DNA from: an uncultured Verrucomicrobiota bacterium
Lineage (GTDB): Bacteria > Verrucomicrobiota > Kiritimatiellia > RFP12 > UBA3636
Reading direction: 5' to 3'
Length of the DNA: 50,741 nt
Assembly: GCA_949295265.1 (NCBI GenBank)
Contig: CASFKR010000001.1
Coordinates: 1 to 50,741, forward strand
Shown: positions 6,607 to 31,254 of the stretch, piece by piece
Numbering within the stretch: position 1 is the stretch's first letter
How the letters are laid out: every line of letters begins with the position of its first letter
Made by a program: the position numbers and the translations under genes
Notes under the pieces: generated by a model
What the model saw: the letters and a program-made list of their open reading frames with translations, nothing else
What the model was told of the DNA's origin: nothing
The model's database searches: none

Positions 6607-6609
6607 CGC

Positions 6610-8781: not shown

Positions 8782-9094
8782 GGCAAGAGGCACGGAAGGG
8801 GGTTCAGATCTTCAAACACGGAAATGGTAGCGGAGATGATTGGCAGGATGCAAACCAAAAATGCCCCGGTTCCCCCTCATTTCCTGTACCGTACACCCCG
8901 CCACGACTCTTCTGCGTCTCTGCGGGAACCATAATGGGTATCATGGATGGTCGGGCGAATTTCCGGATTCCAATGCCGTCAAAAATCGGGATCAACCCGG
9001 ACCAGGGGCGCATTTACGATGAGAAGGTACACACGCAACGCACGCTTGGATTTTACAGTTGAGCGTGTGCCGGAAAAGTGGTATTTTTTACGAC

Positions 9095-10578: not shown

Positions 10579-11781
10579 TCAGGTAGGAGACGAATCGTCC
10601 CCCGGGTCTGCCGATTGAGAAATCGGTTTCTCCGGTTTTACGAGGGCTTGGGAGAGAAAGGCGTGGCCTTCTGCGTACAGTGTTTGCAGGATCTCTGTCC
10701 GGCTCGCCGGGAGCGGCTCCAGCAGGAGGCGGAAATCCGGTGTTTCGCCGGGACGGATGAGGCGTACAGACAGCCCGAACCGGTCCAGCAGCGTTGTCAG
10801 GCGTCCGGCGGAATCTTCTTCCGGCTTTGCAAAGGCGAGGAATGGTCTGCCGAAGAGCAGGGAAAAGACCACGGCATGGAAGGAGTCGGTGACGATGGCG
10901 TCGGCATCGCGGATGGCACACAGCCACGCTTCCACGGAGGGTAGGGCGGGGAAGAGTCCCGGCGCGGGATTGTTCGGTGTATGCAGCGTGGTTGACTGAA
11001 GCGTCAGCCCCGCTGCGCGCAAGCCGTCGAGACAAGTGCGGAGCGCGGGCGTGTTGTCCGTTCGGGCGGACAGGAAACAATGCGTCAGCCGGAGCACCCC
11101 GGGGGTGCGGGGACGTGCGTCCGACGCGGGCAGGAGGCGCTCCCAGGTTTCCGGCGGCAGAAACAGCGTTGGATCCGGGCAAAGCGAGGGGCGGCGCCCG
11201 AAGAGCCGTTCGCAGATGGCGACGCCTTCCGATTCGCGCACGGAGACGGCGTCGAAGGCCTCGAGCCAGCTCCGGTAGCGGCTGAGCCGGGAACCGAAGT
11301 CGGGGTCGCTGTTTCCGAAGGAGGCGGCAACGGCAATCCTGCAGACGGGCGTCCCGTTGAGAAAACTCCCAAAGTAGAGGGGACGCGTCCAGGCCGGGTT
11401 CCAGATTTGGTCGGACCCGAAGATGACTGCGTCGACGGGATGCTGCCGAATCCAGCGCTGAAGATCGCGTTCACTTGCCACGGGGGCGGTCCGTGCGAGA
11501 TGCGCCCGGATCCACGGGCGGATCCGGCGTTCCGCCAGGGCTTCGGAGAGCCCCGGCAGAAGCGGAATGGCTTCACGGCGTCCGCGCAACCGTGCCGCGC
11601 AGCGGAGCCAGAGACGGCGCCCGAACGCCAGCGGCCAGAGTATCCACGGGAGCCGCTGAAAGCGCATGCGCAGCGCAATCGGCTCGTGCCCGAGCGCACG
11701 CAGCGTCTGCTGGAGTGCCCAGAGCTGCAGGATCCCGCCGATATTCGAATGCAGCGGAAGGGTGAGAATGGCGATTTTCAT
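10579..11781 (-). CDS. Polysaccharide pyruvyl transferase family protein
   Basis: MKIAILTL...NIGGILQ, FGSDQIWN, AASFG, VSVRE, DPTLFL and TDSFH are the family motifs. Confidence 0.9.
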   Translation of the reverse strand: MKIAILTLPLHSNIGGILQLWALQQTLRALGHEPIALRMRFQRLPWILWPLAFGRRLWLRCAARLRGRREAIPLLPGLSEALAERRIRPWIRAHLARTAPVASERDLQRWIRQHPVDAVIFGSDQIWNPAWTRPLYFGSFLNGTPVCRIAVAASFGNSDPDFGSRLSRYRSWLEAFDAVSVRESEGVAICERLFGRRPSLCPDPTLFLPPETWERLLPASDARPRTPGVLRLTHCFLSARTDNTPALRTCLDGLRAAGLTLQSTTLHTPNNPAPGLFPALPSVEAWLCAIRDADAIVTDSFHAVVFSLLFGRPFLAFAKPEEDSAGRLTTLLDRFGLSVRLIRPGETPDFRLLLEPLPASRTEILQTLYAEGHAFLSQALVKPEKPISQSADPGDDSSPT

Positions 11782-11885
11782 CGCGGGAATGCGCGTTGAG
11801 CCCAGGCCTGTCCGGAAGTGCGAAAAACGGTCGGGCTGGACAGACAGCCCGACCGTTGGAGGAAAAAGCGTCCGGCCGGGCGCCG

Positions 11886-13892
11886 TCAATAGGCGACGGT
11901 GGAGACGGCTTTGCAGAGGAATACGACGCCGACGGAGAGAATCGAGATGAGACCGGTGCCGACGAAGAAGCCGGAGGAGACGACCGGAATCATCTTGCGC
12001 CACTCACGCCCGAATTTGCGCTCGAAGTAGCACTTGCCGATCAGGGCGCCGATGAAGTTGGGGAGCACGGTGTGCGGCGCGGTCTGACCCAGACCGCGAA
12101 CGACGCCGAAGAACAGCATCGTCGGGGCGCCGAACCAGCCGAGCAGACCCATCACCGCGCCGGCGGAGCCGAAGCCCGCGAGGAACCGGCCGAGCCCGAG
12201 CGCTTCCTTGAACTGGCTGTATTCGCCGAGCGTGGAGGAGTAAATCAGGCACGTGTTTTTCGCCGTCAAATCCCAGATCTGCTCCGTGTAGGGGTAAACC
12301 GCCGAAGGAATTTCAGCCAGCGACCAGATGAAGGAGGAGAAGAACAGCGACGAGCAGATGATGATGGGGAAGAGCAGAATCTGCGCTTTCCAGATGGAGC
12401 CGAATTTGCACCCGAGAAGCTCGGCCTGCTTGTACGAAACCACCTGAATGCCGTAGTTGGACTTCGGAATCGGGATGAACCAGATTTTGACGCCCGTGTA
12501 GCCGGAGAGGATGAACGAAATTTCGGTGATGAACGGAATTTCGATAACCTGACCGGCCAGACCTTCCAGACGGGCCGTCACGTACGAAATCAGCGGCGTA
12601 TAGATGAAGGCGAAGAAGAAGAGGACGACCAGAACACCGGGATGCCAGTCGGTCAGCCAGCCGCAGACGACGATGTAGAGCACGCAGGAAATGGCGTACG
12701 TCACGAAGACCCACGGCACGGGAATGTGACCGCGCATCTTGGAGAGGCGCAGCAGGCGTTCCGCATGGTCGTGCGCCGTCTTTTCGCGCTTGCCGAGGCG
12801 CAGGGTGCGGAAGGCGACCCAGAGACCGAAGAAGGCGATGGCCAGCGAGATGCCGATCTGGAAGGAGAAGTAGAAGTCGACGTTGTTGGCGAAGAGCGTC
12901 AGAACCGTGGTGTCGCCCTGTTCCCACGTCGGCATCTTGCCGAAGTGGTACAGAATCGGGTTCATGACGAAGGTGAAGATCAGACCGACGAAGGAGCCGA
13001 CCATCGACCAGAAGGGGAGCACCATGCCGAGGATGATGTTGCCGAGGTCGAAGGAGAGACCGGTCGCCGTTGCAGGCAGGAACGACTGCGTGTACGGGGT
13101 GAAGTCCGCGAAGGGAATCTGGAAGACCATCAGCGTGCTGTCGAACAGTGCACCGGTGATGGTGGGCAGCGCCATGTACATCAGACCGAAAATCATGCCG
13201 ATGCCGGACCCGACGCAGAACATGCGCCAGCGGACGGAGGCGCCGGCGCTCTTGACGGAGCCCTCCACCTGTTCGGCGATGGCGACGATACCCTGAGCGC
13301 CGACGGGCGCCATCGGGAAGGGGAGCTGCTCGATATCCGAGGTGAGACGGAAAAGCCCGTAGCCGAGGATGGCGGAGTTGAGGCGGCCCATGATTTCACG
13401 GAACAGCATCAGCCCGATGAACGGGAGCCACGCCTTGGAGAGGAACGTGCGCGGGAGGCTGTCGAGATTCTTCGGGGCAACCCACACCGGAATGTCGGCG
13501 GCAACGCCCGTCGCCACCGCCGCATCGGAACGCACGAGGAACTGCGTGAAGAGCGGCGTATTCCAGACGTTGGTCGCCATGACCATGCCGGCCATGTAGA
13601 AGAGGATGAAGAGCTGGGCGCGCGAAAGTTTGGCGTTCGCGCGTTTGGCCACTTCGACGAAGAGCAGAACGGTCACCCACTGGGCGGCACCGCCGATGCC
13701 GGCACCGGCGACGAGTTCCATGTAGAGCGCACCGGGCACCATGACCAGTGCGACGAAGAGAGTGCCGAGCAGCGAGGTCAGGTTGAAGCCTTCCTCGAAG
13801 GAATCGGGCACGGTAAGCAGGGCCCGAAACTCTTCCAGTTCGGCGTCCTCCGTTTTAACGCGGCGGCGAAGCAGATGTTTGAGGGAGATCAT
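11886..13892 (-). CDS. OPT-superfamily-like polytopic membrane protein (putative peptide transporter)
   Basis: About 670 aa with many hydrophobic helices and an EQLPFPMA motif like the OPT ExLxFP segment. Start taken at MISLKH. Confidence 0.75.
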   Translation of the reverse strand: MISLKHLLRRRVKTEDAELEEFRALLTVPDSFEEGFNLTSLLGTLFVALVMVPGALYMELVAGAGIGGAAQWVTVLLFVEVAKRANAKLSRAQLFILFYMAGMVMATNVWNTPLFTQFLVRSDAAVATGVAADIPVWVAPKNLDSLPRTFLSKAWLPFIGLMLFREIMGRLNSAILGYGLFRLTSDIEQLPFPMAPVGAQGIVAIAEQVEGSVKSAGASVRWRMFCVGSGIGMIFGLMYMALPTITGALFDSTLMVFQIPFADFTPYTQSFLPATATGLSFDLGNIILGMVLPFWSMVGSFVGLIFTFVMNPILYHFGKMPTWEQGDTTVLTLFANNVDFYFSFQIGISLAIAFFGLWVAFRTLRLGKREKTAHDHAERLLRLSKMRGHIPVPWVFVTYAISCVLYIVVCGWLTDWHPGVLVVLFFFAFIYTPLISYVTARLEGLAGQVIEIPFITEISFILSGYTGVKIWFIPIPKSNYGIQVVSYKQAELLGCKFGSIWKAQILLFPIIICSSLFFSSFIWSLAEIPSAVYPYTEQIWDLTAKNTCLIYSSTLGEYSQFKEALGLGRFLAGFGSAGAVMGLLGWFGAPTMLFFGVVRGLGQTAPHTVLPNFIGALIGKCYFERKFGREWRKMIPVVSSGFFVGTGLISILSVGVVFLCKAVSTVAY

Positions 13893-13928
13893 TGCGTGGA
13901 ATGACGGGTGTCGAAGGTGCGGGAAAGG

Positions 13929-13945
13929 GTGGCAGGGGCGTGGCA
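13929..13945 (+). repeat. 17-bp recurrent motif copy (exact), intergenic
   Basis: GTGGCAGGGGCGTGGCA between the genes at 11886..13892 and 13980..19187. Confidence 0.75.
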
Positions 13946-13979
13946 CGGGTGCGGGCCGGGTCACGCCCGATGCGTGGAC

Positions 13980-16900
13980 TTAGCGGCTCTTTTTGCCGTG
14001 CTTGGGATTCCGGCGGGCGCGGGGGTTGGTACCGCCCTGGTTGGGGGCGGGCCTGGGCGCCTCGGGGGCCTTGGGTTCTGCAGCGGGGGCGGGGGCGACC
14101 GGAGCGGCAGGCTGCGCGGAGGCGCCGCCCGCCTGCTGATTGCGCAGGTGCGCCTCGTAGGCGGCCCCGGCACCCTGCCCGGCGATGTCCTCGAGCGTCG
14201 AGGCGCGGTAGTGCTCCACCGTCGCAATCGGGAGCGAACGCCAGAGCAGGAACTGCTCGCGCAGCTCAGCGGCAAAGGCGCGGTTGGAGCGCACCCACGA
14301 GTCCGGCGTGCCGCCGATGCGCGTGAGGTCGACCACCACTTCGTCGATGCCCTTGATTTCGAACTCCTGCGAGTACATCCGGAACCGCTGGAAGATGCCC
14401 AGGTCGAACGGAGCCAGCGAGATGTTGGCTTCGATGCCGATGTGCTCCTTGCCGTCGTTGCCGCACGGTTCCTTGAAGATGCGCACGTCCCGGGCCGCAA
14501 AGGAGCCCAGCGTGGCGTCCGCATGGTTGTTGAAGTGCTCGCGGATGAACGAGAGGATGCCGGCAAAGTCGACGGACGAAACGGTGAACGGGAAGACGAA
14601 CTCAAGTTTGTTTCCCTTCGGCGAGGGCATCTTCCACTTGCGGGCGACGCCCGGGTTGGCCGATTTCGAGGCGCGGAGCGCCGGGAAAATCGTCGAGAGC
14701 ATCACCACCGCCATCACAATCAGAATCGTGCAGACGGAGGTCAGCGAGGAGAAGTTCATCTCCGGCGGCGTGATGAGACCGCGCGAGCCGAGGAACTTGA
14801 AGAACTTCGCGACGAGCTGGCTCACGAGGTAGCCGCCCATGCCGCCGATGACGGAGTAGACCGCCGATTCCGCGAAGAAGAGCGCACCCACGTCAACCGG
14901 TGCCAGACCCAGCGCCGAGTATGTGAAGATTTCCTTTTCGCGGGCCACAATCGAGCCCATCAGCGACGAGAAGATAATCAGACCGCCCAGCAGGAGCGGG
15001 ACGATGACGTCCGAGAAGCCGGAGCCCTGCACCGCCTGCGTGAAGAAGAGGCTGTAGGCGCCTTCGGGCGTCTTCACGTGGACCGTGCCCTGGAACGCCG
15101 GGGCGAGCTCCACGCCGATGTCGTACAGCGAGAGGTCTTCCTGCCCCTCTTTGGGGTACATGGCGATGAAGTTGCAGACGTTGTGCCACCCGAAGTACCG
15201 GCGCAGGTCATCCATGCGGGCGATGGCCACGACGTCCGGCGTGAACCATTCGAAGGTGCCGGTGGGCATTTCCTCGAGCGATTCAATGGAGGCGCCGCCC
15301 GTCGCGGACGAGCCGGAGTTGGAGAGCGTCGCCTGAAAGTCCGGCGGAACCCCGCGCAGATCGTCAATCGTCGAAATCTGCTGGAGCGCGAAGGCGTCGA
15401 AGAAGCCGGCGAAGGTGAACGGCACGCCGTTGAGGCGGATTTCATCGCCCTTGGCAATCTGCGTCAGTTCGTTCGTGACGGCAGGCGGCAGGAAGAGCGG
15501 TGGCAGGGGCGTGGCAGCGGTGGCCAGCTCCGGCACGACTTTGCGGAAGCCGGCGGAGTGCTTGATCTCGGTTTCGTCCAGCCCCATGACGGCGGACATC
15601 TGGATGGACTCGCCGGATTTGGGCAGGAAGAGGACGCGTTCGGGGTTGATGCTGGTGTCGCCCGTGTCGTTGCTGCGCGTCGGGATGCGGAAGAGACCGC
15701 CGCGGCGGCAGATGTCGAAGCGGTCGCCGTAGAGCGCATTGAGCGAGTCGATGAAGCCGCTGTCGATGTGCAGGAAGGAGAGGCGGTGCAGCTCGATGCG
15801 GTTTTCATCGGTGCCGCGGCCGAGATACGAATCCACGACGCCCTGCTGCGAAGTGAACGAGGCGAACACGAGAATTGTGAACGTGAGCAGCACGACCGTG
15901 ATGCACGTGAGGAACGTCTTCAGCGGCCGGTTGCGCATGCCCGCGATGCCGATGAGGATGGCGGAGAGCGTGGTTGACGATTCGTTGACAACGCCGTGCA
16001 CCGTCGAGGCCAGGCCCTGCATCGCGCGGATTTCCTGTTTGATCTTGCCCATCATGATGCCCGACGTGATGCACGCAAGCATGATGATGACGAAGGCGAG
16101 GAAGATGACGATGGGGGCAGACGCCAGCGAGAAGGCCGGGTGCGTGAAGAAGAGGATGGCGAACGTGGCCAGGAAGAAGCCGATGAAGCCCATGAGCTGC
16201 TTGTAAATCGACGGGAAGCCGAAGATGAGGCGCTCCATCGCGAAGGCGAACGGGATGTTCAGCAGCAGCAGTACGACGACGGCCTGCACGAGGTCTTCCG
16301 TGACGCCGCGCAGCGGGCGGTAGATGCGGTTTTCGATGCAGTTCGCGAAGATGTGGTGCGCTTCCGCGAGACTCCACTTCTTTTCGGCGATGGCCGCGGC
16401 GGCTTCTTCGATGTGGTCCTTGGAGTCCGCATGGAACTTCTCGAGGTCGTCGCGGACGATGTTGCGTTCGCGGAGCACGGCGAGGCGGGCTTCGTTGAGC
16501 AGGTAGGCGTCGTTGGCGCCCTGAGCGATGTTGTTCGCGTGGAGGCGCGCATCGGTGTCGAGTTTCACGCCGACGCCCATGGCGGCCTTGAGGCGGTCCA
16601 TGCCGGGCGCATTGGTGACGGAGCCGAGGAGCATGTCGCCATTGCCGCCGATGATCTTAATCGGGTCCTGGCGGTCGGCGAAGAATTCCTTGTAGCCCTC
16701 GAATTCGTACACCACGGTGGACGCCGTCTTGTGCGGCGCATCTTTGGAGGCCACAAGCGTCTTGGGCTCGTAGAGATCGCCGCCGATGGGGTCGGGCTTG
16801 TAGCCGTCGCCGAAGGAGAGACCGCCGTAGGCGTAGAAGAGGTGAATCGGCGTGGCCACGATGCCGTAGGCGTCGGCCGCGACCGTCACGCGGTCCAGGG

Positions 16901-19187
16901 CGCCCTCCTCATTGTAGCCCACCGCCATGTTGGTGAAGAGCCACGAGGTGTAGGCGACGCTGCGCCCGATGTACGGCATGTAGATGCGCCCGTTGGCGAG
17001 GATGCGCGAGCGCGGCTGGGCGGACTGCCCGATCATCGGTTCCGGACGGCGGAACGAGGTGATGTACACGATGGCGCGGCGCGGGACGCCTTCGCTGTCG
17101 GTGGAGCCGGCCGCATAGTTGAGGTAGCGCACGCCCGTGTTCTCGTAGTAGGTGAGGCGCGGTTCGAGGCGCTGCGCGGAGAACACGTTGCGGAGCGAAA
17201 TTTCCATCGAGTTGGCGAGCTCGCCGCAGAATTCCGCCATCTGGCTGCTGAGCGGCGAGAGATCCACGAAATCGGCAAACGGCAGATTGTCGTGGAGGAG
17301 GGGCTCGCCGACGGAGGTCATCTGGAAGCCCGCCAGGCCGAGCGCCGCCGAGAGGACGGACGGCACGAGGCGCTGATACTGGTAGGAGAGGGAGTACGGC
17401 TTGTAGGTCGCGTTGAGGGCGGGCTCGTAGAGCAGGGCGGTCCAGGGTTCCTCCGCCGGAGGCTCGCCGTTGGGGCCGGGCATGTGCGCGGCGGCGATGC
17501 CGCCCCGGCCGGTGGCGCCGTAGTAGATGTTGCGGAAGGCGCTCAGGTGGCGGCCGTAGGAGCCCGTGTTGTGATCGCCGTAGCGGTAGAGGCCCGCGGC
17601 GTTGATCATCGTGAACATCCACGGGGCCTTCGCCGAGGCGAAATCAAAGTCGAAATGCCCGACGATGGAGCGCCCTTCGAAGATGTCGGCGAGCTTCATC
17701 CACGAGGCGTTGTTGTCGATCATGCGCTCGAGCTCACCGCGCCGCGTGTGGAGACGCTCGAGCACATTGCCGAGCATGCGCGCGTACATGGCGGGCACAT
17801 CGGCGACCGGGTCGGACTCCAGCCCGGCGTCCGGCAGGTATTTGCCCTTGACGAGCTGTTCGCGCAGGAGGTTGGAGGCCTCGCGCTGCGCCTGCAGATG
17901 GTCGATCTGCACGGAGAGTTCGGCGATGCGGGCGGTGGCGGCCTGCTTTTCGGCTTCGTCGCTGAACTGCGGGAGGCGGCTCTGCAGGGCGGTGCGCTCT
18001 TCGCGCAGATCGCCGATGGGCTCGCGCAGGCCGTTGGCCAGCGCCACGAGTTCGCGCTTGAGGCGGTTCTGCAGATTGCGAGCCAGCGGGCCGCGGGCAT
18101 CGATGATGTTGTTCGCGTCTGCAAACGCGATGAGTTCGCGGATGGACACCAGCTCCTCGGCGTATTTCTCGCCGCGTTTGGCGAGGTCGAGGTTGTTGAT
18201 GTTCTTGTTCGACATGTCAATCGTGTGGTAGAAGAACCGGGCGCCTTCGAGGCCCGCATACTTCGAGCCGAAGAAGACGACGATGACACGGCGGTTGAGG
18301 GGACGGCCCGAGCGCGCGAGCGAGACGGCGGTCTGCGTCAGCAGCGCCACGTTGGCGGCGGCGCGCAGTTCCGGCGAGTAATCGGGCGTGAAGCCGTAGG
18401 TGTCGAGCGTGGCGGAGAGGATGAGCACTTCCTCGGAATCGAGATTGCCTTTCCAGCCGGGTTTGCTGGGGAGCTCGACCCAGAGGTTTTTGCCGGGGAC
18501 GTCGCGGATGACGCTGCGGGCGTCGAGGACGGCCTCGCGGGTGCCGTCGGCGGTCAGGAGCCCGGCGCGTTCGGCATCGGCGCGGTCGATGTAGACGCGC
18601 GGCACCAGCGTGAGACTCGTGAAGCCGACGGCCGACATGCGCGTGTTGGCCAGCGTGGCGTCGCCGACGAGGATGACGGCGCGGGCGCCGTGCGTCATGA
18701 CGTCGCGGATGTCCGCCTCCGGAAGCGTGGCGTCGAGGACGGCAATCTTGCCCGTGAGGTCTTTGCCCTCAAAGGTCTGGATGCGCCCGTTGCCGACAAA
18801 GATGGCCGGACCGCGGATCGGCTCGGGCACGACGAACGTGGCCGGACCGTTGTCGATCATCAGCACGCCTTCGACCGGCTCGCCGCCGTAGGTCAGCGAG
18901 AGCCGTTCCGTCTCCTGACTGAGCGAGTCGAACGTCTGGTACTGCGGCTTGAGTCCGGCCTTCGCCAGTTCGTTGCTGACGACATCGAAGGCCTTGGAAA
19001 GATTTTCAGACCCGACGCGGCGGTGCGGGAAACGGGAAATGCCGTTCCAGACGCGACCGTAGACGGAGTTGTCGGGAAGAACAGGAATCTCCGCGGCTTC
19101 CTGTGCCTGTACGGGGCAGAGCAGGGCGGCCAGAGCGAGCGCGGAAAATACGGCGGAGCGGACGCGGGGGATACGGGTGTTATTCAT
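13980..19187 (-). CDS. Giant (1735-aa) fusion: signal peptide, degenerate M28 peptidase/PA domain, coiled coil and FtsX/MacB-type permease
   Basis: Signal peptide ending LCPVQA. PA-like segment GPAIFVGNG...DLTGKIAVL...GARAVILV. M28-like core EVLILSATLD...RRVIVVFFGSKYAGLEGA. MacB-like TM1 RPLKTFLTCITVVLLTF. FtsX motif SIVAREKEIFTYSALG...FFAES. Confidence 0.85.
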   Translation of the reverse strand: MNNTRIPRVRSAVFSALALAALLCPVQAQEAAEIPVLPDNSVYGRVWNGISRFPHRRVGSENLSKAFDVVSNELAKAGLKPQYQTFDSLSQETERLSLTYGGEPVEGVLMIDNGPATFVVPEPIRGPAIFVGNGRIQTFEGKDLTGKIAVLDATLPEADIRDVMTHGARAVILVGDATLANTRMSAVGFTSLTLVPRVYIDRADAERAGLLTADGTREAVLDARSVIRDVPGKNLWVELPSKPGWKGNLDSEEVLILSATLDTYGFTPDYSPELRAAANVALLTQTAVSLARSGRPLNRRVIVVFFGSKYAGLEGARFFYHTIDMSNKNINNLDLAKRGEKYAEELVSIRELIAFADANNIIDARGPLARNLQNRLKRELVALANGLREPIGDLREERTALQSRLPQFSDEAEKQAATARIAELSVQIDHLQAQREASNLLREQLVKGKYLPDAGLESDPVADVPAMYARMLGNVLERLHTRRGELERMIDNNASWMKLADIFEGRSIVGHFDFDFASAKAPWMFTMINAAGLYRYGDHNTGSYGRHLSAFRNIYYGATGRGGIAAAHMPGPNGEPPAEEPWTALLYEPALNATYKPYSLSYQYQRLVPSVLSAALGLAGFQMTSVGEPLLHDNLPFADFVDLSPLSSQMAEFCGELANSMEISLRNVFSAQRLEPRLTYYENTGVRYLNYAAGSTDSEGVPRRAIVYITSFRRPEPMIGQSAQPRSRILANGRIYMPYIGRSVAYTSWLFTNMAVGYNEEGALDRVTVAADAYGIVATPIHLFYAYGGLSFGDGYKPDPIGGDLYEPKTLVASKDAPHKTASTVVYEFEGYKEFFADRQDPIKIIGGNGDMLLGSVTNAPGMDRLKAAMGVGVKLDTDARLHANNIAQGANDAYLLNEARLAVLRERNIVRDDLEKFHADSKDHIEEAAAAIAEKKWSLAEAHHIFANCIENRIYRPLRGVTEDLVQAVVVLLLLNIPFAFAMERLIFGFPSIYKQLMGFIGFFLATFAILFFTHPAFSLASAPIVIFLAFVIIMLACITSGIMMGKIKQEIRAMQGLASTVHGVVNESSTTLSAILIGIAGMRNRPLKTFLTCITVVLLTFTILVFASFTSQQGVVDSYLGRGTDENRIELHRLSFLHIDSGFIDSLNALYGDRFDICRRGGLFRIPTRSNDTGDTSINPERVLFLPKSGESIQMSAVMGLDETEIKHSAGFRKVVPELATAATPLPPLFLPPAVTNELTQIAKGDEIRLNGVPFTFAGFFDAFALQQISTIDDLRGVPPDFQATLSNSGSSATGGASIESLEEMPTGTFEWFTPDVVAIARMDDLRRYFGWHNVCNFIAMYPKEGQEDLSLYDIGVELAPAFQGTVHVKTPEGAYSLFFTQAVQGSGFSDVIVPLLLGGLIIFSSLMGSIVAREKEIFTYSALGLAPVDVGALFFAESAVYSVIGGMGGYLVSQLVAKFFKFLGSRGLITPPEMNFSSLTSVCTILIVMAVVMLSTIFPALRASKSANPGVARKWKMPSPKGNKLEFVFPFTVSSVDFAGILSFIREHFNNHADATLGSFAARDVRIFKEPCGNDGKEHIGIEANISLAPFDLGIFQRFRMYSQEFEIKGIDEVVVDLTRIGGTPDSWVRSNRAFAAELREQFLLWRSLPIATVEHYRASTLEDIAGQGAGAAYEAHLRNQQAGGASAQPAAPVAPAPAAEPKAPEAPRPAPNQGGTNPRARRNPKHGKKSR
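15500..15516 (+). repeat. 17-bp recurrent motif copy (exact)
   Basis: Inside the giant permease, read as AATPLP. Confidence 0.75.
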
Positions 19188-19953
19188 CTTCTTCCTCGAT
19201 GCCCAGAGAATCTTTCTCGACCTTGACGTGGCGGGACTCGGCGATGCGGGCAATGCGGCCGTCGCTGATCCACACCATGCGGGAGGATACGGAGAGCATA
19301 TTGGGGTCGTGCGTCGCGCAAATTACGGTGACGCCGTCATTCTTGTTCAAATCGTGGAGCAGCCAGTGAATCTCCTTGCCGGTCTTGAGGTCGAGGTTGC
19401 CGGTCGGCTCGTCGCACAGGAGAATCGAGGGGTTGTTGGCAAGGGAGCGGGCGATGGCCACGCGCTGCATCTGACCGCCGGACATCTCTTTGGGGCGGTG
19501 ATTCCAGCGGGAGGCGAGCCCGACGCGGTCCAGCAGCGCCATGCCGCGGGCGCGCGCTTCGTCCGAGGAGACGCCGGCGAAGACCATCGGCAGGGTGACG
19601 TTTTCCAGCGCGGTCATGACCGTGTTGAGGTTGAACTGCTGGAAGACGTAGCCGATCTTGCGGCAGCGCAGGAAGGCGAGTTCCTCGGCGTTGAGCTGCG
19701 CCATGTCCACGCCGTCGATGAAGACGCGTCCCGACGTCGGGGTGTCGAGCCCGCCCACCATGTTGAAGAAGGTGGACTTGCCGGAGCCGGAGGGACCCAT
19801 GACGCAGATGTATTCGCCGCGATAGATGTTGAGCGTGATGCCGGCCAGCGCATGGACGGGCTCGGTGCCGCGCCAGAAGGTGCGCTTGATGTCGTGGACG
19901 GATACAAGGACTTCCTTGCCGACCGCGTATTCTGCTTCGTTAAAGGTAATCAT
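19180..19953 (-). CDS. ABC transporter ATP-binding protein, LolD/MacB/FtsE type
   Basis: GPSGSGKST, GYVFQQFNL, MSGGQMQRVAIARSL, CDEPTGNLD and ATHD. Overlaps the start of the giant gene. Confidence 0.95.
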   Translation of the reverse strand: MITFNEAEYAVGKEVLVSVHDIKRTFWRGTEPVHALAGITLNIYRGEYICVMGPSGSGKSTFFNMVGGLDTPTSGRVFIDGVDMAQLNAEELAFLRCRKIGYVFQQFNLNTVMTALENVTLPMVFAGVSSDEARARGMALLDRVGLASRWNHRPKEMSGGQMQRVAIARSLANNPSILLCDEPTGNLDLKTGKEIHWLLHDLNKNDGVTVICATHDPNMLSVSSRMVWISDGRIARIAESRHVKVEKDSLGIEEEDE

Positions 19954-19957
19954 GGTG

Positions 19958-21487
19958 TTATTCGACTCTCATGGCTTCCATGGGTGCCATACGGGAGGCG
20001 GACCAGGAAGGCTGGATGGAGGCCAGAGCCGCAAGCAGGATGCCGGCAGCCAGCGAGAAAAGGGCGGAAAAGATGATGTCGACCCCCGGGAAATAGGTCC
20101 AGAGATGCGCGCCGTACAGGATGGAGCAGCGGACGACCGAGATGAGGAAGCCGACCACGACGCCGATGACGCCGCCGGCCGCACCCTGCATCGCCGCTTC
20201 CATCATGAACTGCGAGAGGATGTACGCATCGGTCGCGCCCAGGCACTTCATCGTCGCAATTTCGCGATAGCGTTCGGTGATGGACATGAGCATCGCGTTG
20301 GTGATGCCGACCATGCAGACGAGGAACGAGATGAAGAGCAGGAAGAGCTGGCGGCCGGTCAGCCCGAGGAACGAGGGAATGGCGCGGGTGACCATGGCGA
20401 GCCGCTGGTTGAGCAAGGAGAGGCGGCTGACGCGCTCATACCGGTCGCTCATCTGCTGGAGCGTATCGCTGCTGAAAGAGCCTTCGAGGAGACGCACCGC
20501 GCGGCGGTCGGTGATGAACGCCATTTTTTCCTCTGCGGAGGAGCGCTTCGTTTCGTTGAACTGGCGTGCCCATTCCGTGCGGAAGCTGTTGCGGTTGAGG
20601 TGTTCGATGAGGTCCGAGTAGGTGTTGGACTCCGCCAGCTGTTCGCGCATGAGCTTCACATCCGCCTCGCTGAGCGTGAAGCCCAGCTCCGTCATCGAGC
20701 GGCGCCAGGCGTCGACGGCATCCGGTGCCGCCGCAGGAATCCAGCGGGCGTCGGAAATCTCCGTCTGACCGCCTTTGGCGAGGTCGGTCGCTTCGTTGGC
20801 GCGGGAAACGGCCGCATTCCAGCGGCGGTTGAAGTCGGTGAGTTCCGTCTTGTAGGCCGGATAGGCGGCCAGGAAGGCGTCGAGGGACTCAATCTTGCCG
20901 GGCACGCGAATCTCGATCTTGATCTTGAGCTGCTCGTGGAAGGAGTCCGAGGTCTCGAGAATGTAGTTGAGGGCGGCACGGCCGGACCGCTTGCCGATCA
21001 GGTTGAGGCGGTGCCCGGTGGGAAGCCCGTCGAGCCAGGTCGTGTAGGTGGCTTCCTGGAGCGCCAGCTGCGCCAGGCGCGAAACTTCCTCCACGGGAAG
21101 CCCGGTGACGTGCGCGGCTTCCTCGATTTCCGCCTGCCCCGCAGCGCGTTTGTGCGCATCCTTGCCGTTCACCTTGCGGGCGGCATCCGCGAGGCGGCGG
21201 ACCGTGGTGTTTTCCTGGGCGTGGGAAAGCAGGCGCGTCAGCGTTGTCTGCGCAAAACGCGCGTGCGCATCTTCGTCCATCACGCCCCCGGCAACGGAGC
21301 GCTGGAAGATGCTCTCGGAGAGCAGGAACATGAAGAAGGCGACGGCCAGCACAACGACGGCCAGCGTCAGCATGGAGCGGAAAAGCCGATGCTTGACGCC
21401 GCGCACGCACAATGTCCAGGTTTCACGCAGGGACATCGTGTGCTGCTTCTGGACATCAATTTCGCGGTAAACGGAGGAATTGCTCAT
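19958..21487 (-). CDS. FtsX/MacB-like ABC permease
   Basis: N-terminal TM RSMLTLAVVVLAVAFFM, a ~330-aa extracytoplasmic region, GITNAMLMSITERYREIATMKCLGA and C-terminal ASRMAPMEAMRVE. Confidence 0.92.
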   Translation of the reverse strand: MSNSSVYREIDVQKQHTMSLRETWTLCVRGVKHRLFRSMLTLAVVVLAVAFFMFLLSESIFQRSVAGGVMDEDAHARFAQTTLTRLLSHAQENTTVRRLADAARKVNGKDAHKRAAGQAEIEEAAHVTGLPVEEVSRLAQLALQEATYTTWLDGLPTGHRLNLIGKRSGRAALNYILETSDSFHEQLKIKIEIRVPGKIESLDAFLAAYPAYKTELTDFNRRWNAAVSRANEATDLAKGGQTEISDARWIPAAAPDAVDAWRRSMTELGFTLSEADVKLMREQLAESNTYSDLIEHLNRNSFRTEWARQFNETKRSSAEEKMAFITDRRAVRLLEGSFSSDTLQQMSDRYERVSRLSLLNQRLAMVTRAIPSFLGLTGRQLFLLFISFLVCMVGITNAMLMSITERYREIATMKCLGATDAYILSQFMMEAAMQGAAGGVIGVVVGFLISVVRCSILYGAHLWTYFPGVDIIFSALFSLAAGILLAALASIQPSWSASRMAPMEAMRVE

Positions 21488-21529
21488 AGCAGAGGTGAAA
21501 AGGGAGGCGGAGGCGCGAACGGAAATCGA

Positions 21530-23734
21530 TTAGCCGGGCATGTACCAGACGCGGTTGGGCGAGGGCGACCCGACAATCAGGTAGTAGGCGAAGTCCACGA
21601 TAATCGTGAGACCGATCAGCAGGATTTCACCGGCAATGATGCCGACGAACAGCGGCTTGCACCGCTGATAGACGCCACCACCGCCAAACCGGACAACGAG
21701 AACCTTGATGAACCACCCGAAGAAGAACGAAGCCGCCGCGCAGCCCGCCGGATAGGAACCCCAGATGAGGAACAGAATCGGGTGAATCGGGAATTTCGCG
21801 AAGCGGAACCGGATCAGGGATACGGCCATCACCGCGAGGAGCCCGTAGAAGAAGAAGTGTGTATGGATGGCATTGCCCGCAATGAGCTGGAGGCGGGCAA
21901 GCGGACCGGACTCGAGCGAGGTCTCGAAGGTGCCGGCCGCCTTCATGTCCATGAAGTGGCGCGCCGTCTGGTCGAGCCCCGTGACCGGCGGGTTGTTGGA
22001 CGCCCAGCTGTCATTCATCGGGTTGTAGTTGTAGGTCGACCATGCGGCGGCGAACCATCCGATGACCATCGCAAGGAGCGCGGCCGCGCAAATCCAGCCG
22101 AAGACCTTTTTGAGGTTGATTTTGTGGTCTTCCGCAATCTTGGCGCCCGTCCCGACGTAGGCGATGAGCGCCTCACGGGGGTCCTGCACAAAGATCGAGT
22201 TGCCGCCCCAGTTGAGGAAGGTGAGGGCATGCGGACCGATGGCGGCCGGACCCAGCAGGGAGACGAGCAGCGTGCCCGGCGTCCAGGCGGGCTGCAGGAA
22301 CGGGATGCCCGTTTCGCACACGATGCGGGAGAACACCGTGTAGAGCATGAAGAGGATGAGCGAGAAGAGCAGCGCAATCAGCCACGACTGGCAAATCCAC
22401 GAGAGGATGCAGACGAAGGCGATGAAGGTCACGATGAGGGTGCGTGCCGCCAGCACGGAGACCTCATCGGGCGCCGCCAGTTCTTCGGCGGCGGAATCTT
22501 CTTCGCCCGCCTTGGCCTTCCGGCGGATTTTCAGCCGGAGGGCGCGCGCAAACACGGCCAGGTAATATGAGCGGCCCGTGTAAAGCAGGATCAGCATGAA
22601 GCCCATGTACGCGCCGCCGCGCATGGCTTCCATCGTCTGCCCCTGCATCAGCGAACCGGTCGTCTGGTAGAACAGAATCGTGAAGATGGCCAGCAGCACC
22701 TGGGAGAGGCCGACGGTCAGCGCAATTTCGGAGCTGACGAAGTAGGCAATGCCGATGAAGGTGAAGTAAATCGTGGCACCCGAAAGCGACCAGTAATTGA
22801 TGGCTTTCTTGATGATGGGCATGTGCGTGTGCAGCGGCAGGTTCCAGCCCTTGAGGTTGGGCAGGAATTCCTGCATCGCAGGGAGGCTCTCCGGGTACCA
22901 TTTGGCGAGGTAATCGATGAGGAGCAGCAGGAAAACCGGAATGACGCCCCACCAGAACAGGCGGTTGCGGAAGATGTCCGGCACCCCGTGGTGCGGGGTC
23001 GTCATGCGCGCGAACTGGCCGGTCACCTGCGCAATCGGGTACGCCAGCTGTTCGTGGGAAGCCCACTGACGGTGTACGAGGAACTGGGTCGAAATCATGA
23101 CGAACACAAACATCGTCAGAATCGGCCCCCAAATCAGCATCGGCTTAATCCAGGCGCGCAGCGGGAGCTCCAGAATCGAGAGCGTCTCCGTGCCGCGGGC
23201 CATGCCGGTGAAGAAGCCGCGGTATACCTCTTCGTACGCCGGGGTCGAAAGGGCCATCGGATCGCCCGGCCACGGGGACGGGAAGAGCTCCGGCCGCAGA
23301 TATTCGGTGAGCAGACCGTGGAGTTCCCAGTTCTGGTGGTTCGGGAGGAAGTACCACGGCATCATGATCTGCGTATGGAAATACCGGTACAGACCCGAAG
23401 TCGGCGCCCAGCAGGCGACCAGCGTCATGATGATGACGAACGCAAGCTCACGCGCGGAAAGCGCCAGCCGGTCCGCCAGCCGGTGCTCTTTCTTGAGAAG
23501 GCGGTCCAGCAGATTCCAGAAACCGTTCCAGCCAAGACCGACCAGGAAGAAGTAGAAGAAGGGACCGGGGGGGATCTGGTGCCCGATCATGTACGTCCCT
23601 TGAAGGACCGTATCATGGAATTTGGCCGTTCCGGCAATAAACAGGATCCCGAGAAGGCTGAAAATCAGCGAACGGGGGCTGATGAACCTGTCTTTTTTCG
23701 GTTGGGCATCAGGAGTCTGTTCCGTAGTCGTCAT
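21530..23734 (-). CDS. DUF6785/DUF6784-like polytopic membrane protein (OPT-related), paralog A
   Basis: 734 aa with many TMs, RQWASHEQLAYPI, PIHPILF and RFGGGGVYQRCKPLFVG. The family assignment is from memory. Confidence 0.8.
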   Translation of the reverse strand: MTTTEQTPDAQPKKDRFISPRSLIFSLLGILFIAGTAKFHDTVLQGTYMIGHQIPPGPFFYFFLVGLGWNGFWNLLDRLLKKEHRLADRLALSARELAFVIIMTLVACWAPTSGLYRYFHTQIMMPWYFLPNHQNWELHGLLTEYLRPELFPSPWPGDPMALSTPAYEEVYRGFFTGMARGTETLSILELPLRAWIKPMLIWGPILTMFVFVMISTQFLVHRQWASHEQLAYPIAQVTGQFARMTTPHHGVPDIFRNRLFWWGVIPVFLLLLIDYLAKWYPESLPAMQEFLPNLKGWNLPLHTHMPIIKKAINYWSLSGATIYFTFIGIAYFVSSEIALTVGLSQVLLAIFTILFYQTTGSLMQGQTMEAMRGGAYMGFMLILLYTGRSYYLAVFARALRLKIRRKAKAGEEDSAAEELAAPDEVSVLAARTLIVTFIAFVCILSWICQSWLIALLFSLILFMLYTVFSRIVCETGIPFLQPAWTPGTLLVSLLGPAAIGPHALTFLNWGGNSIFVQDPREALIAYVGTGAKIAEDHKINLKKVFGWICAAALLAMVIGWFAAAWSTYNYNPMNDSWASNNPPVTGLDQTARHFMDMKAAGTFETSLESGPLARLQLIAGNAIHTHFFFYGLLAVMAVSLIRFRFAKFPIHPILFLIWGSYPAGCAAASFFFGWFIKVLVVRFGGGGVYQRCKPLFVGIIAGEILLIGLTIIVDFAYYLIVGSPSPNRVWYMPG

Positions 23735-23882
23735 TGGGAGGAGTCTTTAAACCTGTGGCAGGTTATGAAAAACGTACGGCCTGAGAATAGCAAAAAACCG
23801 CTCTCAATACAAGGAAAAGCGTGAAATCACGCCTTTGTTCTGTGCCTGTGCATGAAAGAATACAGCGTTCCATTTTGCCCGT

Positions 23883-23899
23883 TTCGCAACAGTTGCGAA
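23883..23899. promoter_or_regulatory. Palindromic operator candidate TTCGCAAC-A-GTTGCGAA
   Basis: Perfect 8-1-8 palindrome in an AT-rich intergenic region. The core GCAACNGTTGC recurs at 24028-24038. Confidence 0.5.
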
Positions 23900-24195
23900 G
23901 TCGGATGAGAATGAATGAGAAGCAACGGCATCCAACCGTCATACCGAAAAGTCGCTAATTGACAGGAAAATACGGAAACCGGAGGGTTCGAAATGAAACG
24001 GAAGCGGCAGGAGTTTTCATACCGGTTGCAACCGTTGCGGAACTGTTCGATTCCGGTTGAAAAAATGTAAGGTGTGTTAGTTTGTATGCAGGGTGTTCAG
24101 GGGTTCAATGAGGACTGCGGGAAAGAAAAAGTGTGAAAATATTTGCGTCACGGAGGCGGATGTGCACCTCCGTGATGCGGACAAAAGAACACGGA

Positions 24196-26382
24196 TCAAC
24201 CGGGCATGAACCAGATGCGGACGGGTGACTGCGATCCGGTTGCCAGGTAGTATGCGAAGTCCATCGCAATCGTGATGCCGATGACGAGAATCTCGCCGGC
24301 AATCAAGCCCACAAAGAGGGGTTTGCATTTCTGGTAGACCCCGCCGCCGCCGAAGCGGACCACCAGCTGCTTGATGAACCACCCGATCAGGAAGGAGGCC
24401 CAGGCGCAGTTGGAGGGGTAGGAGCCCCAGATCAGGAAGAGAATCGGATGGATCGGGAAACCCGCAAACCGGAACCGGAGCAGCGAGACGGCCAGCACCG
24501 CCAAAAAGCCGTACAGGAAGAAATGCTGCTGCAGGGAACTGCCCGCAATCATGCCGAGGCGCTCCACCGGGTTGGTCGCCAGCGATGTTTCAAACGTGTT
24601 CGCCGCCTTCATGTCCGAGAAGAAGCGCGCCGCCTGATTGAGCTCGGCGCGCGGCGGACTCCCGGCGGCATAGCCGTCGTTCATCGGACTGTAATTGTAG
24701 GTCGACCAGAATGCGGCAAACCAGCCGATAATCAGCGCCAGAATGGCGATTCCGCAAATCCAGACGAAGATTTTCTTCAGGTTGAGCCGGTTGTCATCGG
24801 CGAGTTTCACGCCGTTGGCCACATAGCCGATGAGCGATTCGCGCGGATCGGGCGTGAAGATGCCGTTGCCGGCCCAGCAGAAGAACGTCAGGGCATGCGG
24901 ACCGATGGCGGCCGGACCCAGCAGATACAGCAGTATGTTGGTCGGCTGCCAGGCTGGCGCCAGGAAGGGAATGCCCGATTCGCACAGAATGCGGGAGAGG
25001 ACCGTGTAGAGCAGGAAGAGCAGCAGCGAGTAGAAGATGGCCATCAGCCACGACTGGCACATCCACGAGAGCAGGCAGACGAAGCAGACGAACGCAACAA
25101 GCAGGGTGCGCGCCGCCAGAACGGAGACGTCGTCCGGTTCCGCCAGCGTTTCCGTTTCATCGTCCCCGGCCGGAACTCGCCGTTTCCGCCGGAGATAGAA
25201 CGCCCGCGCCAGAACCGCGCGGTAGTACGTACGCCCCGTGTAGAGCAGAATCAGGGAGTAGCCGAAATAGGCGCCGCCCCGCATGCATTCATGCGCCGAC
25301 CACGGCAGGAGAATGCCGTTGACCTGGTAGAACAGAATCGAGAAAACGGTCATCAGAATGCAGGAAAGCCCGACCGTGAGCGAGATTTCCGAACTGACAA
25401 AGTAGGCGATGCCGACAAAGGTAAAGTAAATGGCCCACCCCTGAATCGACCAGTAGTTGACCGACTTTTTGAGAATCGGTATGTGGTTCGTCATCGGAAG
25501 CCAGCCGCCTTTGATGTTCGGCAGGAAACTGGACAGGCTCGGAACCGCTTCCGGATACCATTTCGACAGGTATTCGATGAACAGCAGCGTGAAAACCGGG
25601 ATGACGCCCCACCAGAACAGCCGGTTGCGGAAGATGTCCGGCAGTGTATGGTGCCCCGAGGTCATGCGCGCAAACTGCCCCGTCACCTGCACAATCGGGT
25701 AGGCAAGCTGTTCGTGGGAAGCCCACTGGCGGTGCACGAGGAACTGGATGGAGGTGAGCACCAGCGCGAAGAGCGTCAGAATCGGACCCCAGATGAGCAT
25801 GGGCTGCACCCAGGCGCGGAGCGGCATCTCCAGAATGGAAATGGCTTCCCGCCCGGTGGCCAAGCCAGTGAAGAAGCCGCGGTAAACCTGCTCATACGCG
25901 CGCGTGTCGATGTTTTCCGCGCCGGGCCACGGCGTGGGGAAGAGTTCCGGGCGCAGATATTCGGTGAGCAGCGAGTGTATCTCCCAGTTGTGCTGGTTGG
26001 GGAGGTAATACCACGGCATCATGATCTGCGTGAAGAAGTACCGGAACATGCCCGAGGTCGGGGTCCAGCACGAAACCAGCGTCACGATGATGACAAACGC
26101 CATCTCCTTTGAGGAGAGTGCAAACAAATCCGCCAGACGGTGTCGCTTGCGGAGTATCCGGTCCAGCAGATTCCAGAAGCCGTTCCACCCCAGTCCGATC
26201 AGGAAGAAGTAGAAAAACGCACCCGCCGGCAACTGGTTGCCGACGATGTACGTGCCTTGCAGCACCATGTCGTGGAAGCGCGCCGTCCCGGCAATGAAGA
26301 AGACGCCCAGCAGGCCGAAAATGAGCGAGCGAAGGCTCAGAAAGCGATTTGATTTTGCCCGGAAGCCAACATCCGTTTCCAT
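24196..26382 (-). CDS. DUF6785/DUF6784-like polytopic membrane protein (OPT-related), paralog B
   Basis: 728 aa, colinear with 21530..23734 and sharing long identical blocks (PDIFRNRLFWWGVIPVF, LLGPAAIGPHALTF). Confidence 0.8.
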   Translation of the reverse strand: METDVGFRAKSNRFLSLRSLIFGLLGVFFIAGTARFHDMVLQGTYIVGNQLPAGAFFYFFLIGLGWNGFWNLLDRILRKRHRLADLFALSSKEMAFVIIVTLVSCWTPTSGMFRYFFTQIMMPWYYLPNQHNWEIHSLLTEYLRPELFPTPWPGAENIDTRAYEQVYRGFFTGLATGREAISILEMPLRAWVQPMLIWGPILTLFALVLTSIQFLVHRQWASHEQLAYPIVQVTGQFARMTSGHHTLPDIFRNRLFWWGVIPVFTLLFIEYLSKWYPEAVPSLSSFLPNIKGGWLPMTNHIPILKKSVNYWSIQGWAIYFTFVGIAYFVSSEISLTVGLSCILMTVFSILFYQVNGILLPWSAHECMRGGAYFGYSLILLYTGRTYYRAVLARAFYLRRKRRVPAGDDETETLAEPDDVSVLAARTLLVAFVCFVCLLSWMCQSWLMAIFYSLLLFLLYTVLSRILCESGIPFLAPAWQPTNILLYLLGPAAIGPHALTFFCWAGNGIFTPDPRESLIGYVANGVKLADDNRLNLKKIFVWICGIAILALIIGWFAAFWSTYNYSPMNDGYAAGSPPRAELNQAARFFSDMKAANTFETSLATNPVERLGMIAGSSLQQHFFLYGFLAVLAVSLLRFRFAGFPIHPILFLIWGSYPSNCAWASFLIGWFIKQLVVRFGGGGVYQKCKPLFVGLIAGEILVIGITIAMDFAYYLATGSQSPVRIWFMPG

Positions 26383-28434: not shown

Positions 28435-28614
28435 CGTGGAACCAGCCTTTCGGCGAAGTGTGCCGCCGAACCCGGAGGCGAAGCGGAAGAAACGGGGTTG
28501 ACCTGCGGCGTACGGTGCCAAAGCGTCCCCTGTCGCGTAGAGGGTACCATAAAAACGGAACTTCGTCCGCGGAAGGATACCAGGTGCGCCCGGTTGCCGG
28601 GCGAGGCTGCGCGG

Positions 28615-31221: not shown

Positions 31222-31254
31222 GGCGGGAAGGCGGCGGACCGCGGCGGGAGGCGG

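Follow-up and report, generated by a model that had tools for sequence, protein, structure and literature searches.

In this study, we analyzed a 50,741-nucleotide stretch of DNA (the window) from an uncultured Verrucomicrobiota bacterium and found that six co-oriented genes on its minus strand, arranged head to tail at positions 11886-26382, encode an ATP-binding cassette (ABC) system of type VII with a new and partly fused set of candidate partners. The genes, named A to F from 5' to 3', code for two polytopic DUF6785+DUF6784 proteins (A and B), a small FtsX-type permease (C), an ABC ATPase of the MacB/LolD type (D), a giant FtsX protein (E) and a divergent polytopic protein of the oligopeptide transporter (OPT) superfamily (F). 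Together with a second ATPase, D', the module consists of three paralog pairs, D/D', C/E and B/F. An earlier note on this DNA, made from its letters, had described the six genes, and their anatomy agrees with Pfam, which assigned DUF6785/DUF6784 to A and B, FtsX to C and E, ABC_tran to D and OPT to F. The six genes of that description hold, and what it missed is D', the status of A as an extra copy and the pairing of the parts into triads.

A constant set of genes in permuted order

Hereafter, L-codes denote loci and G-codes denote genomes, G000 being the genome of the window. Relatives of the cluster were collected with a degenerate-pattern scan for the B family in 185,579 species genomes, which gave 135 confirmed stretches, and 79 loci were kept. 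The content of the loci was determined by phmmer using the six window proteins against all stop-to-stop open reading frames (ORFs). In 32 loci the sequence reaches at least 9.5 kb beyond B on the downstream side; of these, 23 carried C-D-E-F in this order, 8 carried none of these genes, and one (L082) carried C, D, E and F upstream of B in permuted order. Where the sequence left space for it (1.7 kb or more; 54 loci), C was the next gene after B in 36 cases. All four genes C, D, E and F were present in 25 loci, whose labels begin with Kiritimatiell- (5), Verrucomicrobi- (4), Lentisphaer- or Victivallales (5), Planctomycetota (7, one of them Brocadiaceae) and Spirochaetes (1), 3 being unlabelled, and these loci bear out the co-occurrence across phyla that the earlier note had left to a neighbourhood comparison.

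Of the 23 loci in which F is complete and the sequence continues for at least 300 nt past it, 21 have the gene of the second ATPase, D', after F; the remaining two are L018 and L006, the closest relative of the window. Four further loci, from the same class, have other arrangements, namely D-E-F-B-C-D' in L089, L090 and L092 and D-C-D-E-F-B in L091. F comes directly after E in all 29 complete loci. The gene order is permuted, and the six-part content is constant. Because the parts fall into three paralog pairs and one of the arrangements consists of contiguous D-E-F and B-C-D', this layout suggests two triads, each made of an ATPase, an FtsX protein and an OPT-fold protein. Beyond the set itself, no Pfam family occurred more than 3 times among 132 flanking ORFs of 24 loci, as judged from the 25 commonest of 156 families and with 13 ORFs left out.

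Some loci also showed variant genes. In the four further loci, B is a long variant of about 985 aa (L089, 14888-17869; L090, 14764-17724; L092, 2315-5269; L091, 10163-13099) with an insertion of about 330 aa that has no Pfam match and lies between DUF6785 profile positions ~125 and 138, and in these other gene orders the long B comes together with a short C (~220-270 aa). In L072 (10013-21945), the homologues of B, C, E and F are each divided into two or three ORFs, which represent either a decaying copy or assembly errors. A 2324-aa frame over F in G266, considered as a fusion, was really an alternative-frame ORF across E.

The polytopic proteins have a predicted OPT/YSL fold

Gene A (24196-26382, minus strand) and gene B (21530-23734, minus strand) encode proteins of 728 and 734 aa, which are 69% identical. 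In Pfam, DUF6785 (PF20581, cut-off 25 bits) and DUF6784 (PF20580, cut-off 26.4 bits) were matched at 232.6 and 78.6 bits by A and at 234.9 and 65.6 bits by B; these were the only matches, and the Pfam OPT model (PF03169) was not matched in sequence by either protein. The AlphaFold2 model of B, built from 112 sequences, had a mean predicted local distance difference test score (pLDDT) of 95.1 and a predicted template modelling score (pTM) of 0.94. Using this model, Foldseek returned the two entries of barley YS1, 7wst and 7wsr, as its sole matches at an E-value of 0.001 or below (6.4e-8 and 2.0e-7, probability 1.00). VIA-align, a search of 48,161 chains that is independent of Foldseek, also placed 7wsr_A at the top (Z 22.4, root-mean-square deviation (rmsd) 4.0, 543 of 600 residues aligned, model residues 15-728), and the next-best chain reached only Z 6.1. 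Since the model of B matches YS1 over the whole chain and yellow-stripe proteins are members of the OPT family, as stated in the part of the OPT review used here (PMC3061005), DUF6785 and DUF6784 together are one complete OPT/YSL fold, as far as a predicted model can tell.

Gene F (minus strand; ORF 11886-13964, likely coding region 11886-13892) encodes a protein of 668 aa, for which the Pfam OPT model itself scored 33.8 bits against a cut-off of 25.8, in two stretches; an OPT match with an E-value of 0.01 or below was found in 13 of 23 members of the F family. The claim of the earlier note that all three polytopic proteins are OPT-like is thereby supported, for B by its predicted fold, for A via its identity to B, and for F by Pfam. 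In the six-frame translation of the window (101,478 residues), the segment E-Q-L-x-[FY]-P-[IM], to which the note had drawn attention, has exactly three occurrences, one each in A, B and F. Only one of 112 B-family sequences lacks its core E-x-L-x-[FY]-P, and all 23 F-family sequences have it. To judge from sequence comparison, A is a tandem paralog of B and an extra copy restricted to this lineage, and no second B-type copy stands beside B in the closest relatives L005 and L006.

Two FtsX-type permeases and two ATPases

Gene C (19958-21487, minus strand; 509 aa) matched Pfam FtsX at 64.2 bits. Its four hydrophobic segments lie at 38-56, 381-399, 439-457 and 471-489, with an extracytoplasmic domain of about 320 aa between the first and second transmembrane (TM) helices. 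Gene E (minus strand; ORF 13980-19253, likely coding region 13980-19187) encodes the giant protein of 1735 aa, which matched FtsX at 40.9 bits over ORF residues 1420-1530. The FtsX unit of E consists of TM1 (~1091-1109), about 285 extracytoplasmic residues and TM2-4 (~1395-1510), and N-terminal of TM1 stands the motif GMRNRPLKTFLT, which is typical of MacB-type TM1 regions. In addition, E has three closely spaced and highly conserved extra TM helices (~962-1044) with invariant charged residues, and a conserved cytoplasmic C-terminal domain (~1530-1670). When E was considered as a duplicated FtsX protein, comparison of the extra helices with FtsX TM2-4 by hhalign gave a probability of 1.2, which does not support a duplication. 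Because the three extra helices of E are not detectably a second unit, C and E contain one FtsX unit each, and these units share 26% identity over 121 aa (E-value 2e-4). In the ESM Atlas, C matched only FtsX clusters named 'hypothetical protein', and the C-terminal domain of E had no usable match.

Gene D (19180-19953, minus strand; 257 aa) matched ABC_tran in Pfam, and its nearest NCBIfam models were LolD (220 bits) and MacB (217 bits). The NCBIfam equivalog cut-offs were not reached, as the MacB cut-off of 966 was missed by C (51 bits) and D, the LolD cut-off of 308 was missed by D, and the lolCE model gave 40.7 bits against a cut-off of 362. The MacB periplasmic core domain (PF12704) was not hit in C or E of the window; the E homologue of L089 has it at 34 bits (cut-off 27). 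A better LolCE-like gene, with 269.7 bits and also below the cut-off, is located elsewhere in the host genome (G000:C6:19918-21141), and since this better candidate exists, the module is not the Lol system of its host.

The D' gene of the host genome was found on contig C102 of G000 (locus L088) at 6121-6930 on the minus strand, where it overlaps the start of an SMC gene (2372-6427) and is unlinked from the rest of the module. It is 82% identical to the D' of L013; D was the second-best match of the L013-type query in the host genome (57%). D and D' of the host are 53% identical, and D' is the closest paralog of D there. In both ATPases, the Walker A, SGGQ, Walker B and H-loop motifs are intact.

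A pseudo-peptidase head on the giant permease

From the N-terminus, E (E numbering) consists of a signal-peptide-like segment, an M28/PA pseudo-peptidase fold (~39-665) with an inserted coiled-coil hairpin (~335-503), a beta-rich domain and a helical stalk up to ~960, the extra TM helices (~962-1044), the FtsX unit (~1091-1510) and the cytoplasmic tail (~1530-1670). The Pfam model Peptidase_M28 scored 19.7 bits on E, under its cut-off of 21.3, and the cut-off was passed by three distant E homologues with 27-32 bits. A HMMER profile of 25 E homologues matched the PA-domain aminopeptidase 2ek8 (E-value 1.2e-15), B. subtilis YwaD (2.4e-10), PaAP/keratinase (1e-7) and, weakly, the PA region of the transferrin receptor.

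The same fold was obtained from structure prediction. The AlphaFold model of E residues 25-960, built from 61 sequences, had a pLDDT of 93.0 and a pTM of 0.92, and Foldseek matched it to 2ek8 (1.1e-17), followed by BSAP, PaAP, transferrin receptor 1 (TfR1) and glutamate carboxypeptidase II. VIA-align aligned 251 of 291 residues to the Aeromonas aminopeptidase 1rtq_A (Z 23.4, rmsd 2.8, model residues 15-640) and 381 residues to the PA-containing 3iib (Z 22.3), and it also matched TfR1 (Z 21.8) and chain 7wld_G of the GPI transamidase (Z 17.6); these fold searches barely covered the region past ~650. In the model, the M28 fold is broken by a helical hairpin of about 170 residues (model helices 311-479), and after the fold there is a beta-rich region, then three long helices toward the membrane.

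The M28 motifs H-x-D, D-D and E-E would place the first histidine ligand, the bridging aspartate, the catalytic glutamate and the glutamate ligand at positions 260, 272, 309 and 310 of E, respectively. Across the 61 relatives, position 260 is R in 23, T in 17, S in 8, N in 5 and P in 2, and never His; the bridging-Asp column at 272 is P in 60 and T in 1; position 309 is H in 34, R in 12, S in 6, Q in 3 and G in 2, and never Glu; and position 310 is Y in 47, A in 7, N in 4, H in 1 and M in 1, and again never Glu. Because the 61 relatives have no catalytic residue at the columns tested and the M28/PA fold is complete, the alignments and the predicted model support a pseudo-peptidase as the ectodomain of E, in agreement with the earlier note.

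Accessory distribution and stand-alone copies

The phyletic pattern was examined in 301 genomes of the phylum of the window, all at least 80% complete; the counts are given without a statistic, and related genomes are not independent. DUF6785, which marks the B family, was found in 48 of the 301 genomes and in 41 of 149 genera, with 44 strong matches and 4 weak ones (E-values 2e-7 to 8.5e-4), and two whole families within the order of the window were without a match (0 of 15 and 0 of 12 genomes). The F-family profile at an E-value of 1e-30 or below was found in exactly the 44 genomes with a strong B-family match, and no sampled genome had a strong B-family match without the F family. A single-sequence search with the fast-evolving head of E (1e-10 or below) detected 29 genomes, all within those 44 and none among the 257 others, and the matches were always in frames of about 1,450-1,890 aa. 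A divergent E is present in at least 3 (G173, G251 and G221) of the 15 genomes positive for B and F that this query missed. Since the distribution is patchy, the module is an accessory unit, which is probably mobile, and not core envelope machinery; the patchiness fits a nutrient-type function.

On a larger scale, searching 1.84 billion cluster representatives (50% identity) for the E-head family gave 456 at an E-value of 0.001 or below, 167 at 1e-10 or below and 40 at 1e-30 or below. Most of these representatives have 1.6-1.9 kaa, and all named E homologues are called 'hypothetical protein'.

B can also occur by itself, as the ABC genes are missing in 8 of the 32 B-family loci with enough flank. 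In other cases B is directly followed by E, as in L071 and L083, which belong to one Planctomycetota metagenome-assembled genome (MAG), and in L078; L052 of the same MAG has this pair on the other strand. That MAG as a whole (L049, L052, L056, L064, L071 and L083) includes, besides a canonical cluster and two stand-alone B genes, three B-E pairs that lack C-D in between, and this content suggests that B-E specificity pairs have multiplied there. Similarly, with up to four candidates scored per genome, G163 (a module-bearing genome assembled as a single contig), G154 and G277 each have at least 4 full-length B matches against 2 F matches. Among 64 ORFs beside stand-alone B, GntR was found in 4 and LacI-type binding domains in 2, and GH92, GH95, DUF2961, glucosamine-6-P isomerase and an acetyl-xylan-esterase-like protein were single cases.

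Operon features, surroundings and transcripts

With the likely starts, the spacers are 461 nt between A and B, 42 nt between B and C, 4 nt between C and D and 87 nt between E and F, and the start of E overlaps D by 8 nt; the close spacing of the ATPase to the small permease and its overlap with the giant gene are thus as first described. The ATG at 19187 is the likely start of E, because a basic N-terminus followed by a hydrophobic, signal-peptide-like stretch results, and the ATG at 13892 is the likely start of F, because 23 full-length homologues align with the ORF only from residues 20-40 onward. A terminator-like hairpin (11823-11857, minus strand), located 29 nt past the F stop codon, has a perfect stem of 12-13 bp followed by UUUUU. 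Its fold of -25.7 kcal/mol (z -6.5) was equalled in none of 200 shuffles, and it is likely the end of the operon. A scan for promoter and terminator consensus sequences found 17 against 12.8 +/- 3.6 in shuffles, which is not above expectation, and did not list the hairpin after F. In Rfam and tRNA scans, no Rfam family or tRNA was found inside the cluster.

The flanking genes encode a polysaccharide pyruvyl transferase, a xylose-isomerase-like TIM barrel, a PNP_UDP_1 phosphorylase, NAD synthase and GlmS, and their sequences give no evident link to the cluster. As the earlier note had stated for the cluster, there is no gene for a solute-binding protein, a MacA-type adaptor or a TolC-type protein, and the window flanks contain none either. 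The gene for the polysaccharide pyruvyl transferase (10579-12003, minus strand) is directly downstream of the hairpin, at the place of D' in most other loci. On the plus strand, a 1822-aa ORF without Pfam match (28252-33720) lies opposite NAD synthase and GlmS and is most likely a spurious shadow frame of high-GC DNA; similar frames occur in L093 (2353-8859, minus strand, and 4377-9371, plus strand). The window also contains tRNA-Leu(taa) at 39413-39498 and tRNA-Ser(gga) at 50449-50538, both on the minus strand, and its GC content is about 0.55 at 36-42 kb against about 0.65 elsewhere.

Near-identical DNA was found in metagenome runs from 7 studies, two rows of which are possibly the window's own source. 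The stretch 13900-23800 had a word share of 0.4-1.0 in bird, chicken-gut and gut metagenome runs, and because such runs contain it, the host apparently lives in bird guts. In metatranscriptomes, four runs from two studies gave short contigs over all six genes and also over the flanks, and of 30 bins, those with depth numbered 28 in X10, 16 in X15, 23 in X18 and 17 in X19. One RNA-library contig bridges the D/E junction (19126-19342), and another contains the 3' end of A and the A-B spacer (23951-24308); such contigs carry no information on strand or single transcripts, and DNA carry-over is possible.

Discussion

Using these results, we propose a working model for the module, which we put forward tentatively, with a chance of being right as a whole that is somewhat short of even. 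It combines a type VII ABC core of C/E and D/D', the head of E as a receptor, uptake through the OPT-fold proteins and an origin by triad duplication. C and E would pair as the membrane heterodimer of a mechanotransmitting ABC system of type VII, for which D and D' would supply the power. ATP hydrolysis would move the extracytoplasmic head of E, that is, the M28/PA pseudo-peptidase with its coiled-coil arm, and this head may be a receptor or clamp for a peptide-like or glycopeptide-like periplasmic ligand. B and F, as cation-coupled importers, would then take the ligand across the inner membrane. The module may have arisen by duplication of a triad of ATPase, FtsX and OPT-fold protein, and the extra stand-alone copies of B may share the same engine. 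Uptake and a peptide-like cargo are suggested because of the behaviour of OPT transporters, the peptide-binding ancestry of the M28/PA head and the accessory distribution. In the sections of the OPT review cited here (PMC3061005), all characterised OPT members are cation-symport importers, prokaryotic members are predicted peptide porters, and some OPT proteins have fused protease domains.

Several points weigh against this model. Regarding the assembly, none of the present results shows contact among the module proteins; complex prediction for B (734 aa) with E 860-1115 scored 0.00 in both runs, which were made without controls and give no evidence either way, and because of the triads D-E-F and B-C-D' in the gene order, E with F may be a better pair for joint prediction. 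A search for F homologues of greater length, which is weak evidence, revealed no fusion, and no ABC or OPT domain was found in four long E homologues (1919-2101 aa). Regarding the head, the M28 ligand columns of E were read from the HMMER alignment to 2ek8 with the M28 motifs as a guide, and for the last two ligand positions there is no tool alignment, with H511 and D515 being conserved. Regarding the OPT-fold proteins, A, B, F and all 23 F relatives lack the NPG and KIPPR motifs, the solved YS1 was not matched when B and F were compared with PDB sequences by sequence or by profile, and the B and F families were not detectably similar by hhalign (probability 0.1, E-value 0.54), with a single local alignment that sits on the shared motif. 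The missing motifs weaken the OPT family claim for F without overturning it, and because of their absence A, B and F are very divergent members of the superfamily; in the text of the OPT review used here, NPG and KIPPR are reported for many OPT proteins and not for all (PMC3061005).

The cargo and the direction of transport are subject to similar doubts. A peptide as cargo would follow only by analogy, and the neighbours of stand-alone B give a weak hint toward glycans at least as much as peptides. Peptide uptake in the host does not depend on the module, because two genes for SBP_bac_5-type binding proteins are also present in its genome. None of the type VII systems in the parts of two sources used here imports; they extract, expel or activate (PMC12646458, PMC5985334), so that import via an attached secondary-transporter fold would be without precedent. 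An elaborated form of the proposal is a hybrid transporter, a pseudo-symmetric assembly of two triads, in which the type VII heterodimer loads or gates the OPT-fold proteins and the head is a built-in receptor, while the ABC engine may be shared among several scattered OPT-fold specificity subunits as in energy-coupling factor (ECF) transporters; we consider this form possible and at the same time doubtful.

The module could also work in the opposite direction. C, E, D and D' may pull an amphiphilic or lipid-anchored molecule from the outer leaflet of the inner membrane, as LolCDE or YbbAP do, with the head delivering it outward and the OPT-fold proteins supplying it from the cytoplasm or serving as membrane scaffolds. 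Such a role would agree with the periplasmic or outer-leaflet substrates on which type VII systems act, according to the parts of PMC12646458 and PMC8333309 used here, with the MacB-like periplasmic core domain of the L089 homologue of E (34 bits against 27) and with the three conserved extra TM helices of E, whose invariant charges could form a lateral substrate site. We nevertheless regard it as unlikely, as neither the module nor its surroundings encode an adaptor, an outer-membrane factor or a carrier of the LolA type, the genome contains another LolCE-like gene at a different site, a distribution over 48 of 301 genomes speaks against core envelope biogenesis, and the OPT members characterised so far all import, as far as the review goes in the part cited (PMC3061005). 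For a regulator in the manner of FtsEX, in which the ATP-driven arm of E and its degenerate peptidase switch a periplasmic hydrolase or expose its substrate and B and F import the products (muropeptides or glycopeptides), the catalytically dead peptidase fold of E with its inserted hairpin of about 170 aa is a suggestive feature. EnvC has the same pairing of a degenerate peptidase with a coiled coil; however, it is an M23/LytM protein and not M28. FtsEX-EnvC is itself counted as a type VII system in the source parts used here (PMC12646458, PMC5985334). Since no hydrolase gene is conserved beside the module and 253 of the 301 genomes have no B-family match, unlike what a division function would require, this role appears improbable.

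Finally, a MacB-like pump and OPT-type importers may simply be co-regulated in one operon for one task and be mechanistically separate. That this OPT-fold family can be encoded apart is clear from the 8 of 32 B-family loci without ABC genes, D' is unlinked in the host genome, and fusion proteins were not found. However, the six-part content is kept across at least three gene orders and across phyla, B and F are present in exactly the same 44 of 301 genomes, F directly follows E in every one of the 29 complete loci, and the three-pair symmetry would be hard to account for by co-regulation alone; we therefore give mere co-regulation only a small chance.

The module would add a fifth kind of type VII system beside MacAB-TolC, LolCDE-LolA, FtsEX-EnvC and YbbAP-TesA, which are those named in the source parts used here (PMC12646458, PMC5985334) and are each defined by their extracytoplasmic partner; the partner of the new kind would be partly a fused M28/PA pseudo-enzyme and partly two OPT-fold polytopic proteins. 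Searches of the open-access full text and bioRxiv literature revealed no paper that names DUF6785 or DUF6784 and none on a type VII ABC set combined with OPT-type proteins, in line with the earlier note, which knew of no functionally characterised example. We are not aware of another system that would pair a primary-active mechanotransducer with a secondary-transporter fold. The predicted model of B also gives a first structural assignment for the Pfam families DUF6785/DUF6784, namely the OPT/YSL fold, and the module provides a setting in which bacterial OPT-type proteins can be tested; we know of no biochemically characterised member among them. Because the carriers are polymer degraders of gut and sediment from the PVC group, which are hard to culture, the module could be an unrecognised route of nutrient capture.

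Compared with known systems, the module shares features with several of them and is identical to none. ECF transporters have two different ATPase subunits and a shared module that serves scattered S-components. By analogy only, our module resembles them in having two ATPases and possibly a shared engine for scattered copies of B, whereas the folds are unrelated and the use of the ABC part by stand-alone B is speculative. The transferrin receptor is a non-catalytic member of the M28 fold. E resembles this receptor and GPAA1, as well as the PA-M28 aminopeptidases 2ek8, BSAP and PaAP, in having an M28 fold with an inserted PA domain, and it resembles the receptor-type members in lacking catalytic residues; unlike them, its domain is fused to an FtsX permease and contains a long helical hairpin inside the peptidase fold, after which come an additional beta-rich domain and a helical stalk.

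Among OPT/YSL transporters (TC 2.A.67; barley YS1, PDB 7wsr and 7wst), B has the whole YS1 fold in its predicted model, F is above the Pfam OPT cut-off, and A, B and F have similar sizes (~670-730 aa) and many TM helices. In contrast, B and F have no sequence match to YS1 and no NPG/KIPPR, B is filed as DUF6785/DUF6784, and both are encoded with a type VII ABC set in the sampled genomes. No ABC association is reported in the part of the OPT review used here, where the sole mention of 'ABC' concerns a different peptide-transporter family (PMC3061005).

Each type VII ABC system has its partner in the periplasm, namely EnvC, LolA, MacA-TolC or TesA, according to the parts of the two sources cited (PMC12646458, PMC5985334). 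Compared with these systems, our module has no gene for a MacA, TolC, LolA or TesA-like hydrolase partner, and its conserved partners are two OPT-fold polytopic proteins. Its permeases are a candidate heterodimer (C and E) with two different ATPases, its giant permease has a fused M28/PA pseudo-peptidase head of ~930 aa, three extra TM helices and a conserved cytoplasmic tail, and its proteins miss all NCBIfam equivalog cut-offs widely. MacB_PCD, which was not hit in C or E of the window, is present in one E homologue (L089). Features that the module shares with the type VII systems are FtsX permeases with TM1, an extracytoplasmic domain and TM2-4 in both C and E, MacB/LolD/FtsE-like ATPases with intact motifs, and a large extracytoplasmic working part.

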